A stretch of DNA of 24,812 nt from Candidatus Heimdallarchaeota archaeon (GCA_019057375.1 DXJF01000096.1:1-24812); one strand, 5' to 3'; positions 4,665-14,186 are shown, numbered from the stretch's first letter. Notes: a model not told the origin generated them from the letters alone. Translations and numbers: made by a program.

Positions 4665-5210
4665 CTATCTATTTTTTCCTATTCTTGGTATTGGAACCCA
4701 TTTTGGTACATCTTCTTTATATTTTTCAAACTCCTCCTCAAATTGTTCTGTTAGCAGTTTCTCCTCATGTGACGCTATGAAATCATAAAATATGACAATA
4801 ATCACAAGTAAACCCAAGGAAGCTAATGATAAAGTAATTACTGTAAGTCCTAAGTACAGAAGAATGGTTCCAAAATAAACAGGATGTCTTGTATATTTGA
4901 ATACTCCAGTTTTGATAACTTCAGGAGGGTCTCTAACTTCTCCAAAAATCTGTCTTAAACCCTTGTAAGCTAAGAAAGATGAGAAAAGAAGTATTAAGCC
5001 ACCTATTGGAGCACTGACATAAATTGGGATATATTCAGATAGAAATGTCGAAAATCGAAGATAAAAGGAATCTATTCCCCACAAAACGGTGAAAAGAGCT
5101 AAGAAAATTATTTGCCCGATATCACCATATTTGTATTCGCCTGAGAGATCATGTCTGTCCTCGTAACGATGATGTTTATGAGCTTCGGTTTTACCTTCTT
5201 TATCATCCAT
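4665..5210 (-). CDS. Isoprenylcysteine carboxyl methyltransferase / phospholipid methyltransferase (ICMT/PEMT) family membrane protein
   Basis: GVFKYTRHPVYFG motif, HEEKLL...FEEEFEKYKEDVPKWVP C-terminal motif, several TM helices. Confidence 0.85.
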   Translation of the reverse strand: MDDKEGKTEAHKHHRYEDRHDLSGEYKYGDIGQIIFLALFTVLWGIDSFYLRFSTFLSEYIPIYVSAPIGGLILLFSSFLAYKGLRQIFGEVRDPPEVIKTGVFKYTRHPVYFGTILLYLGLTVITLSLASLGLLVIIVIFYDFIASHEEKLLTEQFEEEFEKYKEDVPKWVPIPRIGKNR

Positions 5211-8526: not shown

Positions 8527-9687
8527 ATGAACCCGAAACCTAAAAGAATCGGAATGAAGAATCAGCTTAAACGATTTCGCTTACCCCTACTCATATTTAT
8601 GCTATTCTGGGCTGCAGGAGTGCTTACTCTTTATTTCCTTGAAACAGACAAGAGCTTTAAATATTTAATACTGGTATCAATTGGAGTTAAACAGGGTGTG
8701 TCTACTTCTGATTTCGTAGGGTTTTATCAACTTCTCTGGCCAATTATGTTCGAATTGTTGATTCTAGGTTTTCTACTTAGTGTCTTGCTTGAATTTTATA
8801 GTTACAATCCCGAAGCTCGTTCCCTAAAACTAGCTAAAAGCAAAAAGAATCATTCTGTAATATTAGGATATAATCATTTAGGGGAGAGGATTGTAGACTA
8901 TCTGAGAGAAAATAAACAGCCTTATGTAGTAGTTGAAATATTGCAGGAGAGAGCAGATGATATGATTTTTGCAGGAGAACCAGTTATTGTAGGTGATCAT
9001 ACAGAAGAAATTGTTTTGAAATCTGCAGGTGTTCATAAGTGTAAAGAAGTTTTTTGTGTTACAACCAAACTTCGTAATGCTTTAATTGCTGCTAGCAAGA
9101 TTCGAAAAATCAATTCTGAATGTAATCTGTACATGAGAGTATTTAATGAGCATTTTAGACAAAATCTTGATGCTGAACCTTACAATGCTTACACTTTTTC
9201 AATTTCAAATTGGGCAATGGATTCTGTCAAAAAATGGAGTGAAAATATGAAAGGTAAAGCTCTCATTCTTGGGCAAGATACACTTGTTCAGAGAATTTTA
9301 ACTTACTTTGGCGAAAGTTTGAAGAAAGAAATAATTGCTATTCATCCAGAAATTGAACCTGATTTGTACTCAGAATATCCTAATGTTTTAGTTCTTCAAG
9401 AAAACGCAAAATATCTTGAGAGTCTTGAAGATTTATGTGGAATGGAAGAAATTTCTCAAGTTTACATTTGCTGGAATAATGAAGAGTTGTTTTCTGATGC
9501 AATCATTCTGACAATGGAACTGAAGAAAAAGTATCCAGAAAAGGAGATCTTTGTTCGAATATTTGATGAAGAATTAGCTGAACTTGCTAAAGGAATTGGG
9601 GCGACTACATTCTCCACTTCAGCATATGCCTTTAAAATGCTTCAAAAAGAAGTTGAACTAAATTCAGGAGTGTTTCAAGATAAATAA
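8527..9687 (+). CDS. Two-TM protein with tandem TrkA-N/RCK domains (potassium-channel-family-like architecture)
   Basis: Two N-terminal TM helices; HSVILGYNHLGERI (RCK Rossmann-like), VIVGD...L..AGV, and a second RCK-like unit KALILGQD...IFVRIFD. Confidence 0.75.
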   Translation: MNPKPKRIGMKNQLKRFRLPLLIFMLFWAAGVLTLYFLETDKSFKYLILVSIGVKQGVSTSDFVGFYQLLWPIMFELLILGFLLSVLLEFYSYNPEARSLKLAKSKKNHSVILGYNHLGERIVDYLRENKQPYVVVEILQERADDMIFAGEPVIVGDHTEEIVLKSAGVHKCKEVFCVTTKLRNALIAASKIRKINSECNLYMRVFNEHFRQNLDAEPYNAYTFSISNWAMDSVKKWSENMKGKALILGQDTLVQRILTYFGESLKKEIIAIHPEIEPDLYSEYPNVLVLQENAKYLESLEDLCGMEEISQVYICWNNEELFSDAIILTMELKKKYPEKEIFVRIFDEELAELAKGIGATTFSTSAYAFKMLQKEVELNSGVFQDK

Positions 9688-9702
9688 AAGAAGAAAGCAT
9701 TT

Positions 9703-11426: not shown

Positions 11427-12257
11427 ATGTCTCGTAAGAAGGAAAAGAAAGTTGTTCTACTAACTGGAGCTTCAGGTGGGATAGGTACTGTTACAGCAGC
11501 ATTATTGCTTTCTAAGGGATACATAGTTTATGGAACTACCAGAAATCTGAATAGTGCACCAAAAACGTCCTATCACCAATTACAGCTTGATGTTCAAGAT
11601 GAAACTTCTGTGAAAGAATGCGTTCAAGAAGTTGTGAATAAGGAAGGGAAAATTGATATTTTGATCAATAATGCAGGTTATGCACTCTGTGGGGCCCTAA
11701 AAGATTTAAGTATGGATTTATTGAAAGATAGTTTTGAAACCAATTTATTTGGAGTTCATAGGATGGTACAAGAAGTTGTTCCTATTATGATTAAACAAGG
11801 GCAAGGAAGAATCATCAATATGGGTACATTTGGTGGACGTTTTGGGTTACCTTTTCAAGGAATATATAGTGCTTCCAAAGCTGCTTTAGCTATTTATTCA
11901 GATACTCTAAAAATTGAATCACACAGAGACAACATCAAAGTCGCTTTAATTGAGCCTGGAGATACTAGAACAGATTTTAACGCAGGCAGAAAGTATACAG
12001 AAGGGTTTGAAAATGATCCAGATGCTCAAAGAGCTGTTGAAATCATGCGTAAAGAGGAATTAAAGGGAATAAAAACAGAAAAAGTAGCGAAATCAGTTCT
12101 AAAAGCAGTAAAGGCAAGAAATCCTAAACCAAGATATACAATGGGGTTTCAACCGTTCTTTTTTGGAATTTTAATTAGATTGTTCCCATATACATTGCAC
12201 AGTTTTATTGCTAGGTTGTATTATAAAGTTCCAAAAAAAAGAAAGGAAAGTAATTAA
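11427..12257 (+). CDS. Classical short-chain dehydrogenase/reductase; candidate 3-ketodihydrosphingosine reductase
   Basis: TGASGGIG, NNAG, catalytic YSASK, IEPGDTRTDF. The SDR call is firm; the specific substrate is inferred from resemblance and context. Confidence 0.9.
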   Translation: MSRKKEKKVVLLTGASGGIGTVTAALLLSKGYIVYGTTRNLNSAPKTSYHQLQLDVQDETSVKECVQEVVNKEGKIDILINNAGYALCGALKDLSMDLLKDSFETNLFGVHRMVQEVVPIMIKQGQGRIINMGTFGGRFGLPFQGIYSASKAALAIYSDTLKIESHRDNIKVALIEPGDTRTDFNAGRKYTEGFENDPDAQRAVEIMRKEELKGIKTEKVAKSVLKAVKARNPKPRYTMGFQPFFFGILIRLFPYTLHSFIARLYYKVPKKRKESN

Positions 12258-12302
12258 GAAATTTAGAAGCATAAATTTCTCATTAGAGACAGTTTCAATG
12301 CA

Positions 12303-12376
12303 AAATTTATAATTAAGCTGGTAGATTCTTACTTCGTTATAGGTTAAAGCTTGTCTGTAAAAAAACTGTTATGGAG
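12303..12376 (+). promoter_or_regulatory. Candidate TATA box and ribosome-binding site for the SPT-like gene
   Basis: A-rich stretch then TTTATAA at 12306-12312; GGAG at 12373-12376, 8 nt before ATG 12385. Confidence 0.3.
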
Positions 12377-12384
12377 ATAAAATA

Positions 12385-13596
12385 ATGGCTCAATTTTACA
12401 AAAAATGTGACAGATATTTGCGTTTTGGAGAAGCTACTTTATTAAAAAAAACTGGAATCTATCCTTATTTTCATCAAATAACAGGGGAACAGAATCCAAT
12501 TGTTCAAATGGATGATAATGAAGTGATAATGTTAGGCAGTAACAATTATCTAGGCATGACTTCTCATCCTAAAGTTAAGAAAGCAGCACAAAAAGCTATT
12601 GAAGAGTATGGTGTTGGCACAACTGGATCAAGATTACTAAATGGAACCATGGATATACACATTGAACTAGAAGAACGGTTAGCAAGATTTGTCGGAACTG
12701 AAGATTGTCTAGTCTTTTCTACTGGTATGCAAGCTAATTTGGGAGCCATATCAGCAATGATATCAGATAAAGATGAATGGGTGCTTTCTGATCAGCAAAA
12801 CCATGCGTCTATAATCGATGGAATCAAGCTTGCAAAAATGAAATCCTCTAATAAAAGAATTTACAAACATAATGACATGGAAGATTTAGAAAAACACCTC
12901 AAAGAAATACCAAAAGGGAAGGGATTAATTGTTACAGACGGTGTTTTCTCCATGGAGGGAGACATTGTAAAACTAGATATTCTCGTAGAATTAGCGGAGA
13001 AATATGGAGCAGGAGTTTATGTTGACGATGCTCATGCAGTTGGTGTGATTGGTCCTCATGGGAGAGGGACAGCGGCACACTTTGATCTAGTCGACAAAGT
13101 TGGAATTACTATGGGAACTTTTTCCAAAAGTTTCGCCACTATTGGAGGGTACATAGCAGCAAGTAAAGCAGTATGTAATTGGCTAAAACATAAAGCCAGA
13201 TCATTCATTTTTTCTGCTAGTCCACCCCCAGCAAACTGTGCTACTGTCATAGCGGTTCTAGATATCATTGAGAAGGATGAATCCTTCAGAAAAAATGTCT
13301 TATCAGTTGCTGGTAGAATGAGGGAAGGATTAATTGATGTTGGATTTAATGTAGGTGATTCTTCTACAGCAATTGTTCCTTTAATTGTTGGAGAAAGAAG
13401 AAAAACCATGAAATTCTTCAGAGATTTATTTGAACACAAACCTCGAGGAATATTCTCCAATCCAGTTGTTTACCCTGCTACAGCAAAAGGCGAAGAATTA
13501 ATTCGCTCCTCTTATATTGCTACAATGACAAATGAGATTGTAGACGAAGCCTTGCATATTTTTGAGGATGTTGGAAGAAAGATGAAAATAATATAG
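12385..13596 (+). CDS. spt: PLP-dependent alpha-oxoamine synthase, serine palmitoyltransferase-like
   Basis: GSNNYLG, GSRLLNGT, NHASIIDG, DGVFSMEGD, DDAH, PLP-lysine motif GTFSKSF, FIFSAS, ELIR, and N-terminal GIYPYF. The family is certain; SPT versus BioF/KBL rests on motif comparison from memory. Confidence 0.7.
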   Translation: MAQFYKKCDRYLRFGEATLLKKTGIYPYFHQITGEQNPIVQMDDNEVIMLGSNNYLGMTSHPKVKKAAQKAIEEYGVGTTGSRLLNGTMDIHIELEERLARFVGTEDCLVFSTGMQANLGAISAMISDKDEWVLSDQQNHASIIDGIKLAKMKSSNKRIYKHNDMEDLEKHLKEIPKGKGLIVTDGVFSMEGDIVKLDILVELAEKYGAGVYVDDAHAVGVIGPHGRGTAAHFDLVDKVGITMGTFSKSFATIGGYIAASKAVCNWLKHKARSFIFSASPPPANCATVIAVLDIIEKDESFRKNVLSVAGRMREGLIDVGFNVGDSSTAIVPLIVGERRKTMKFFRDLFEHKPRGIFSNPVVYPATAKGEELIRSSYIATMTNEIVDEALHIFEDVGRKMKII

Positions 13597-13763
13597 CACT
13601 TTGAATAAGTCATTGAAATAGATAGATTTTCCCAAACTGATAAGAAGAATGACTGAAAATAACTAATAATAAACTCAATTCCCTAGAAAGACTCTAGTAT
13701 AGTTTAGAAATATGCGTGAGTTTTAACTCAAACTTTATTAATTTTAATATAAGAAGTTACAAG

Positions 13764-14186
13764 ATGACTGAAGAAACTAAGAAAAAGAAAGGTGGAGTTA
13801 AGTACATTATTATTTTTAACGTGTTGATCTTTATAGGGGGCATAGTTACTGGTTTAGTGTTCATCTTCACATCGATATTCCCAGATTTTGATTTAGATAA
13901 ATTGTGGACTGGTAACTACATCATCTTTGGTACTATTGGTTTTATGATGTTCATTCTCATGCCAACAATGGTTATTTCCCTAACTCGAAGGAGAAAGACT
14001 GTTTTCTCTTCACTTCAAAGTATGAAATTCTCGCAAATTGGTCCGTATGCACCAGGATACAAACCTTCTGGTATGAAGAAATCTCGATTCTGCGAGTATT
14101 GTGGGTATGAGGTCAAAACTGGGGAAAGAGAATGTCCAGAATGTGGTGGTCCAGTTCAGAGTATAAAATCAAGTTATATCTCCTAA
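13764..14186 (+). CDS. Two-TM membrane protein with a C-terminal zinc ribbon
   Basis: Two TM helices, then CEYCG...CPECG. ATG 13764 is preferred over the GTG at 13716 used by the ORF track. Confidence 0.75.
   Translation: MTEETKKKKGGVKYIIIFNVLIFIGGIVTGLVFIFTSIFPDFDLDKLWTGNYIIFGTIGFMMFILMPTMVISLTRRRKTVFSSLQSMKFSQIGPYAPGYKPSGMKKSRFCEYCGYEVKTGERECPECGGPVQSIKSSYIS

Follow-up and report, generated by a model that had tools for sequence, protein, structure and literature searches.

An SDR gene and an SPT-like gene lie side by side in a Heimdallarchaeal genome

We analyzed a stretch of 24,812 nucleotides (referred to here as the window) from Candidatus Heimdallarchaeota archaeon (GCA_019057375.1, DXJF01000096.1:1-24812), focusing on the locus at positions 11427-13596. 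At this locus, a gene for a short-chain dehydrogenase/reductase (SDR) is followed by a gene for an alpha-oxoamine synthase (AOS) that resembles the serine palmitoyltransferases (SPTs) of Bacteroidota, and an initial annotation of the sequence had proposed the pair as a candidate module for sphinganine synthesis. Direct reading confirmed both open reading frames (ORFs) on the plus strand, at the coordinates and with the separation of 127 nucleotides (nt) that this annotation had given:

11427-12257, plus strand: classical SDR of 276 amino acids, candidate 3-keto long-chain-base (3-ketosphinganine-type) reductase
12258-12384, plus strand: A+T-rich spacer of 127 nt from the SDR to the AOS gene (direct reading)
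12385-13596, plus strand: SPT-like AOS of 403 amino acids, candidate long-chain-base synthase

The spacer opens, straight after the SDR stop codon, with a perfect 8-bp inverted repeat at 12258-12279 (GAAATTTA, 6 nt, TAAATTTC), which could form a weak A+T-rich hairpin or serve as a binding site. Given a TATA-like element at 12302-12315 (AAAATTTATAATTA), the AOS gene may have its own promoter, and a GGAG at 12373-12376 stands 8 nt ahead of its ATG.

The host, which the initial annotation could only suppose to be an Asgard archaeon, is a member of the Heimdallarchaeaceae, as indicated by homologs, small-subunit (SSU) rRNA, and synteny. The assembly comprises 3.47 Mb in 159 contigs (89% complete, 5% contaminated), and its SSU rRNA scores highest with the archaeal model. 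The closest homologs of the AOS (81-88% identity) and of the SDR (69-82%) are named Heimdallarchaeota or Heimdallarchaeaceae. Approximately 17 kb of the window, with genes for TrkA-like, MsrB, flavodoxin, SDR, AOS, small zinc-ribbon membrane, and PhoU-like proteins and an ABC importer, are syntenic with four independent Heimdall metagenome-assembled genomes (MAGs) at 70-97% protein identity. Synteny of this length marks the SDR-AOS pair as native to the Heimdall lineage, and it rules out contamination or a binning artefact as the source of the pair. Pfam scans found no bio genes and no tdh within the window, in agreement with the earlier statement that bioA, bioB, bioD, and a threonine dehydrogenase (TDH) gene are missing from it.

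The synthase groups with SPT-like proteins

The AOS matches the Pfam model Aminotran_1_2 with 199 bits. Among the NCBIfam models, its highest score is to SerpalmtaseCFB (NF047600, Bacteroidota-type SPT; 456.3 bits), followed by TIGR01825 (414), KBL (399), BioF (368), and ALAS (275 bits), while the alpha-type SPT hidden Markov model (HMM) gave only 290 bits and the CqsA-type HMM 222 bits. The protein falls below both KBL cutoffs (399 versus 460 and 320 versus 493 bits) and below the BioF cutoff (368 versus 426 bits). The ranking against PDB entries is similar, with the SPT of Sphingobacterium multivorum at the top (336 bits), then ThAOS (280) and KBL (255), and lower down Sphingomonas-type SPT (228-236), the cysteate fatty acyltransferase CFAT of the capnine pathway (222), and human SPTLC2 (187 bits).

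We then computed a maximum likelihood tree of 71 sequences (LG+C20+F+G4), with labeled AOS references drawn from chromosome pieces misfiled in a plasmid collection and from other genomes. The SPT references came from Parabacteroides (684 bits) and Bacteroides finegoldii (700 bits), each adjoined by a diacylglycerol (DAG)-kinase-family gene; the KBL references adjoin tdh, the BioF reference was taken from a bio operon, and one HemA was included. Added to these were a TIGR01825 member and a KBL, each scoring above its own cutoff, and CFAT homologs with 589 bits to PDB 28EH. The window AOS was placed within an archaeal clade (support 100/100) whose members are source-labeled Heimdall, Loki, and Thermoplasmatota, and this clade is nested in a larger SPT-like clade (97/96) whose other members include the true SPTs of Bacteroidia and many SPT-like proteins from bacteria. 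Outside it fall KBL, TIGR01825, BioF, HemA, CFAT, and the two other AOS paralogs of the host genome. The approximately unbiased (AU) test rejects a grouping of the archaeal clade with KBL/TIGR01825 (delta lnL 65, p-AU 0.005), and the CFAT homologs form a separate long-branch clade (100/100) of which the window AOS is not a member. The rows closest to the archaeal clade are an unclassified bacterial MAG and a Promethearchaeum MAG. The earlier view of the synthase as SPT-like, and not BioF or KBL, is thus borne out by the top HMM, the top PDB match, the 97/96 clade, and the AU test, and we regard this computational assignment as well supported, with a score that lies under the curated equivalog threshold.

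MAGs with Ignavibacteria/Chlorobi-like SPT-like genes (loci L018, L025, L057, and L075) are labeled “uncultured Hyphomicrobiales bacterium” by NCBI. This label looks wrong for L018, whose class shares genomes with the Bacteroidota-group sample.

The residues that contact serine are retained

The translated AOS contains the motifs named in the initial annotation, i.e., GIYPYF (residues 24-29), NHAS (139-142), GTFSKS (244-249), and LIR (372-374), with Lys248 of GTFSKS as the lysine that binds pyridoxal 5'-phosphate (PLP). We mapped the protein onto S. multivorum SPT, taking the residue roles from published work (PMC10196870), and into an alignment of 115 sequences, 47 of them archaeal. The PLP-binding and catalytic residues of S. 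multivorum SPT all have equivalents: His138 (H140), Asp210 (D214), His213 (H217), Thr241 (T245), Ser243 (S247), Lys244 (K248), and the C-terminal Arg (R374). The serine contacts Asn52, Gly80, and Ser81 are retained as N53, G81, and S82, and with them the full set that binds the serine carboxylate and hydroxyl (Asn52, Gly80, Ser81, His138, and Ser243). The active-site residues that differ are Ala79 and Met271, replaced by Thr80 and Ile275; in the acyl wall, Tyr27 and Phe28 are kept (Y28, F29) and Phe83 is replaced by Leu84.

In the archaeal and SPT-like rows, YPYF (26-29), GSR[LF]LNGT (81-88, GSRLLNGT in the window AOS), T113, Q116, FSKS (246-249), and NP (359-360) are invariant or nearly so. 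The positions of YPYF, GSR[LF]LNGT, T113, Q116, TFSKS, and NP differ in KBL, TIGR01825, and BioF. The lysine motif of the window AOS is FSKS and not the LGKA of KBL, the signature residues of KBL and BioF are missing, and the notion that GTFSKS sets SPT-like enzymes apart from these two families holds across the alignment. Since both characterized neighbors in the tree, SPT and CFAT, are long-chain-base synthases, the chemistry predicted for the window AOS is bracketed.

The candidate reductase is a classical SDR with KdsR as its best-scoring family

The SDR matches Pfam adh_short with 147 bits. Its best NCBIfam model is KdsR (NF049977, 229.5 bits), so that the KdsR-like character claimed for it stands, by a marginal first rank. 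The KdsR model has a narrow reach: of the control genomes, Bacteroides thetaiotaomicron alone passes it, and the best matches in SPT-bearing Bacteroidota other than Bacteroides score 205-223 bits. The protein contains TGASGGIG, GLPFQGIYSASK, EPGD, Arg39, N106, YSASK, and a hydrophobic C-terminal tail, of which TGASGGIG and Arg39 point to a preference for NADPH. Most of the pattern described in the initial annotation (the YSASK-type motif, EPGD, and the tail) was found, and one element, E.EE..G, is matched only approximately, by RKEELKG. LPFQG-YSASK, EPGD, and a hydrophobic C-terminal tail ending in YYK are common to the AOS-linked SDRs, including those of Thermoplasmatota and Desulfocicer.

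In a tblastn search of PLSDB with the SDR, all matches were generic “oxidoreductase” genes (38-41% identity), and a BT_0972 ortholog was not among them. Within the host genome, the window SDR is the reciprocal best match of the Thermoplasmatota operon SDR described below (201 bits, versus 120 for the next protein). In the SDR tree, the Heimdall SDRs group with the best KdsR-like protein of Prevotella and with Clostridial AOS-linked SDRs (SH-aLRT 94). From sequence alone, the KDSR-like call is weak, and because the KdsR score is only marginally the best, the role that we assign to the SDR rests mainly on gene linkage.

When the SDR genes at L131 and L138 are compared with that at L085, the operon SDRs stand on the Desulfocicer side, though their AOS partners share one archaeal clade. 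Because the SDR grouping departs from the AOS clade, the reductase partner was probably recruited or replaced more than once.

Linkage and distribution of the two genes

The SDR-then-AOS order was found in six sampled genomes of the genus, with SDR-AOS gaps of 118-160 nt in related Heimdall MAGs. A conserved pairing, which the initial annotation had named as a check of synteny across Asgard genomes, therefore holds for these six genomes, while adjacency stops at the genus. Outside Asgard, too, SPT-like AOS genes have an SDR gene of the same subfamily as immediate neighbor: in Thermoplasmatota, in Clostridia, and in a Desulfobacterota MAG (Desulfocicer), the gaps measure a few to ∼20 nt (6-15 nt in Thermoplasmatota) or the genes overlap. 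The Thermoplasmatota operon has the order long-chain fatty-acid-CoA ligase, AOS, SDR; its ligase is AMP-forming, and each of the top nine NCBIfam families that it matches is a family of long-chain fatty-acid-CoA ligases. The gene for this ligase also lies directly upstream of the AOS gene in two other Heimdall genera.

To describe the distribution, we sampled 251 Asgard and 251 Thermoplasmatota genomes. Of the Asgard genomes, 22 contain the AOS, most of them from two Heimdall-class families, and of the Thermoplasmatota genomes 6 do; the AOS was not found in the two largest Asgard families sampled (0/59 and 0/54). SDR orthologs occur in 12 of the 22 AOS-bearing Asgard genomes versus 5 of the 229 others. 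For the ligase, 15 of the 22 have an ortholog, and every ortholog found belongs to one of the two families in which the AOS is most frequent.

Several further genes were seen near SPT-like genes. In one Thermoplasmatota genome, a divergent sulfotransferase gene (L138:2885-4012, minus strand) lies upstream of the ligase-AOS-SDR operon, amid nucleotide-sugar genes, which may hint at a sulfated or glycosylated product. In one Heimdall MAG, the gene immediately upstream of the SPT-like gene encodes a PlsY-type glycerol-3-phosphate acyltransferase (L136:5097-5759, plus strand); in the host genome, the PlsY-like matches are weak and lie on C128, C65, and C16. In another archaeal subclade, a conserved GNAT acetyltransferase gene of ∼205 codons is encoded divergently beside the AOS gene (L137:5210-5836, minus strand; L151:7725-8345, plus strand; L012:5223-5864, minus strand). 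Its product may act on the base as an N-acyl- or N-acetyltransferase, and the host genome contains no ortholog of it.

Possible acyl supply and AOS paralogs in the host genome

A search of the host genome for an acyl-CoA ligase, as the initial annotation had suggested, located an ortholog of the Thermoplasmatota operon ligase on another contig (C104:9525-11237, 646 bits). In addition, contig C147 carries a 3385-amino-acid ORF that is preceded by a carboxyltransferase gene (C147, approximately 14038-25696; L152:1039-12697). According to Pfam, its domains are an enoyl reductase (NMO), ketosynthase (KS), acyltransferase (AT), acyl carrier protein (ACP), ketoreductase, polyketide synthase-type dehydratase, and phosphopantetheinyl transferase, so that we predict a type I megasynthase of fatty-acid/polyketide type. 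The KS-AT portion recurs in 48 of the 251 sampled Asgard genomes, closed ones included, and in 19 of the 22 AOS-bearing genomes versus 29 of the 229 others. This megasynthase offers a putative endogenous source of acyl chains and may be tied to the SPT-like enzyme.

Of the other two AOS proteins in the genome, one is KBL-like (C106) and groups with a haloarchaeal AOS that adjoins a GalE-like dehydrogenase. The genome also has a GalE-like TDH on C135, and a search with one query found no BioD homolog in this 89%-complete assembly. From the KBL-like paralog, the GalE-like TDH, and the lack of a BioD match, the housekeeping roles of KBL and BioF appear to be covered elsewhere or to be absent. The immediate upstream neighbor of the KBL-like paralog gene encodes a metallo-beta-lactamase-fold protein and not a TDH. 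On C106 (L146:6618-7874 and 8650-9690), this paralog gene lies ∼0.8 kb from one for a DAGK_cat/YegS-type lipid kinase, with a GtrA-like membrane protein gene in between.

Proposed pathway and alternatives

The most likely function of the pair, a reading that we hold with moderate confidence, is the synthesis of a sphinganine-like (sphingoid) long-chain base from long-chain acyl-CoA, of which the two enzymes would catalyze the first two steps. In the first step, the PLP-dependent, homodimer-type synthase would carry out the condensation of a long-chain acyl-CoA and a small amino acid, L-serine being the most likely, with loss of CO2 and CoA, to yield a 3-keto amino alcohol of the 3-ketosphinganine type. 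In the second, the adjacent, membrane-associated SDR would reduce the 3-keto group, probably with NADPH, to give a sphinganine-like base. We infer the first step from family placement and residues and the second mainly from gene linkage. The acyl-CoA would be supplied by the long-chain fatty-acid-CoA ligase encoded elsewhere in the host genome, with acyl chains possibly coming from the type I megasynthase of the host or from the environment.

A number of observations weigh against this proposal. For the synthase, the score of 456.3 bits lies under the curated equivalog cutoff of NF047600 (640 bits), and its lead over the next family is 42 bits, compared with ∼80-125 bits for the bacterial SPT-like proteins scanned; the same model gives 674-700 bits for true SPTs of Bacteroidales and 487-575 bits for many of the SPT-like proteins from bacteria. 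The substrate pocket has changed, with Cys-Ala at positions 79/80 in SPT versus Ser/Thr-Thr in the archaeal proteins, and with Phe83 replaced by Leu. The stem of the archaeal AOS clade is long (0.43), so that drift in substrate is possible. The tree was built from a reference set without alpha- and delta-proteobacterial or eukaryotic SPTs, and the characterized members of the SPT-like clade come only from Bacteroidia and Sphingobacteriia. A homology-based SPT call has also failed before, for Npun_R3567 of Nostoc, a protein that does not cluster with SPTs (PMC8895605), and a 2024 survey of the Black Sea found Spt-like proteins in no archaeal MAG (PMC11334938).

For the reductase, the score is under the KdsR cutoff (229.5 versus 400 bits) and nearly tied with that of the generic model PRK06179 (222.3 bits), and the canonical catalytic Ser of SDRs is a Thr (NMGTFGG), with either Ser or Thr among the orthologs. 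The SDR tree is poorly resolved and places the Thermoplasmatota SDRs with the bacterial SDR of Desulfocicer and not with those of Heimdall. As for the module as a whole, SDR-AOS adjacency is confined to one genus and the AOS is patchy within Asgard (22/251); in closed genomes of the family the two genes show no linkage, and a close SDR ortholog was not found in five AOS-bearing genomes of another family. Finally, no ceramide synthase was identified, in a Pfam TLC/LAG1 search of the genome that came back blank together with its control.

A wider proposal, which we offer tentatively and would not yet expect to hold in full, is that sphingoid bases are made both in Heimdallarchaeaceae and in a few lineages of Thermoplasmatota, which would draw on acyl chains from their own megasynthase and on the linked ligase; with the GNAT that adjoins the AOS in some lineages, they might also convert the bases to ceramide-like N-acyl derivatives.

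Among the alternatives, a different amino-ketone product comes first, and we consider it unlikely. The enzymes would then make a long-chain base from an amino acid other than serine (alanine, glycine, threonine, or cysteate), such as a 1-deoxy base, or else a diffusible signal or secondary metabolite, following the logic of CqsA plus a reductase or that of the fumonisin/sphingofungin type, and not a precursor of membrane sphingolipids. The amino acid specificity of an AOS is unreadable from its sequence and pocket positions 79/80 and 84 are unlike those of characterized SPT, but the binders of the serine hydroxyl and carboxylate listed above are all kept. CFAT, from a sister family, takes cysteate on the same scaffold (PMC13692747), yet the archaeal clade sits within the SPT-like and not the CFAT clade, and a CqsA-like role is disfavored by scores of 222 bits for the CqsA-type HMM versus 456 for SPT. 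The sulfotransferase beside one Thermoplasmatota operon would fit another product, as would the failure to find a ceramide synthase (in the TLC search with a blank control) and the accessory, patchy occurrence of the gene (22/251 Asgard and 6/251 Thermoplasmatota genomes), which is usual for specialized metabolites.

That the two genes are neighbors without a common pathway, the AOS being perhaps a long-chain-base synthase and the SDR a general oxidoreductase with another substrate, strikes us as improbable. The KdsR score of the SDR nearly equals that of a generic family and its nearest named relatives are the unspecific “oxidoreductases” of 38-41% identity, but EPGD, LPFQG-YSASK, and the C-terminal tail are common to AOS-linked SDRs. 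Separate transcription is suggested by the 127-nt spacer, which has a TATA-like element of its own, and the adjacency is seen in one genus only, but the same SDR subfamily abuts SPT-like AOS genes in Thermoplasmatota, Clostridia, and Desulfocicer. Likewise, SDR orthologs do occur in five sampled genomes that lack the AOS, but they are strongly enriched in genomes that have it (12/22 versus 5/229). It is very improbable that the synthase is a housekeeping enzyme, either KBL (glycine C-acetyltransferase) or BioF, whose SPT-like score misleads: many database homologs are named “8-amino-7-oxononanoate synthase” and the HMM scores still reach 399 and 368 bits, but both scores are below cutoff and below the SPT score, the protein lies outside both clades with KBL grouping rejected by the AU test, the signature residues are missing, tdh and bio neighbors are lacking in the window, and a KBL-like paralog and a GalE-like TDH are encoded elsewhere in the genome, in which a one-query search found no BioD.

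Comparison with known systems

The preferred reading, synthesis of a sphinganine-like base, can be set beside several known pathways. Like the SPTs of Bacteroidota (S. multivorum, PDB 3A2B/8GUH; Bacteroides and Parabacteroides, NF047600), the window AOS is a soluble, single-chain AOS of the homodimer type with ∼400 amino acids, and it has the same PLP-binding and catalytic residues, the same YPYF, GSRxLNGT, TFSKS, and NP motifs, and a place in the same 97/96 clade. It differs from them in its identity of 42-48%, its separate long-stem archaeal clade, and its archaeal host. The neighboring gene differs as well, being a DAG-kinase-family gene for the Bacteroides SPT and an SDR gene for the window AOS. 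In B. thetaiotaomicron, BT_0870 has a DAG-kinase-family neighbor, too.

The window SDR resembles KdsR of B. thetaiotaomicron, BT_0972 (PMC9278070), in being a classical SDR of ∼270-280 amino acids with a Gly-rich NADPH motif and YxxxK, a comparison made via the KdsR model NF049977. When coexpressed in Escherichia coli, BT_0972 converts the 3-keto base to sphinganine (PMC9278070). Unlike BT_0972, the window SDR has Thr in place of the catalytic Ser, and the BT_0972 gene is not next to the Bacteroides SPT gene.

In the ceramide pathway of Caulobacter type, the SPT gene is likewise clustered with those for an AMP-forming acyl-activating enzyme and a reductase. For Caulobacter, Stankeviciute et al. 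reportedly described in 2022 a set of spt, bcerS, cerR, a dedicated ACP, and an acyl-ACP synthetase, with N-acylation preceding reduction. The archaeal system differs in that CerR is of another family and the Caulobacter-type donor is an acyl-ACP, whereas the archaeal cluster has no ACP gene and its ligase is fatty-acid-CoA-like.

The capnine pathway (CFAT, PDB 28EH, PMC13692747; 3-ketocapnine reductase, PMC11211663) offers a further parallel, in which a synthase of the same scaffold is followed by an SDR ketoreductase. The window AOS is distinct from CFAT, however, with 222 bits to 28EH versus 589 for a true homolog, and CFAT has TFAKS as its lysine motif. With eukaryotic SPT (LCB1/LCB2, SPTLC1/2) and KDSR (TSC10/FVT1), the pair has in common the predicted two-step chemistry and the hydrophobic C-terminal tail of the reductase. 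Eukaryotic SPT is a membrane heterodimer with small subunits, and the window AOS is a single chain of soluble type.

Origin and implications

Since SPT-like lineages of bacteria surround the archaeal AOS clade in the tree, an acquisition from bacteria followed by patchy spread among sediment archaea is favored, and the module was most likely acquired in this way. The initial annotation had also drawn a link to the archaeal-to-eukaryotic membrane transition, for which we found no support in terms of descent: the AOS scores higher with bacterial SPT (336 bits) than with SPTLC2 (187 bits). Bacteroidales SPT scores 219 bits to human SPTLC2, again more than the window AOS with 187, and the window AOS itself reaches 255 bits to KBL. 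These comparisons, made by score and not in a tree with eukaryotic sequences, lend no support to a descent of eukaryotic SPT from the archaeal AOS clade.

In the literature that we searched, we found no report pairing serine palmitoyltransferase with Asgard, and none of sphingolipids or of an SPT/ketoreductase gene set in archaea. A 2026 Nature paper links eukaryotic sphingolipid metabolism to Asgard by a statistical association at the pathway level, with no gene-level detail in its main text (PMC12872458), and a 2026 preprint gives Asgard sisterhood only for GBA2, SGPL1, and SGPP1.

If the proposed function is correct, some archaea with isoprenoid-ether membranes also build fatty-acyl-derived amino lipids. 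This would bear on the existence of mixed membranes, and sphingoid-base biomarkers in sediments would have to be read differently. Under the wider, tentative proposal, such lipids would be native to some archaeal membranes, among them those of close relatives of the lineage that hosted the eukaryotic origin. In eukaryotes and in some bacteria, sphingolipids are already known, and the wider proposal would add the first sphingolipid-type pathway in Archaea. The claim is directly testable, given that it concerns two small enzymes of soluble type.

Other features of the neighborhood

One further gene follows the AOS gene on the same strand:

13716-14186, plus strand: small predicted membrane protein with a zinc ribbon (from translation; weak Pfam matches to Zn_Ribbon/DZR)

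The translated product has two hydrophobic helices and a C-terminal CxxC...CxxC zinc ribbon, and its translation likely starts at Met17 (position 13764). Elsewhere in the window, a PEMT/ICMT-family membrane methyltransferase is encoded at 4665-5210 on the minus strand, and a homolog with 53% identity lies within 5 kb of the SPT-like gene in L013. Homologs of the zinc-ribbon membrane protein adjoin the AOS in L005, L007, L008, and L009, and in L013, which lacks the SDR, one is encoded directly upstream of the AOS.

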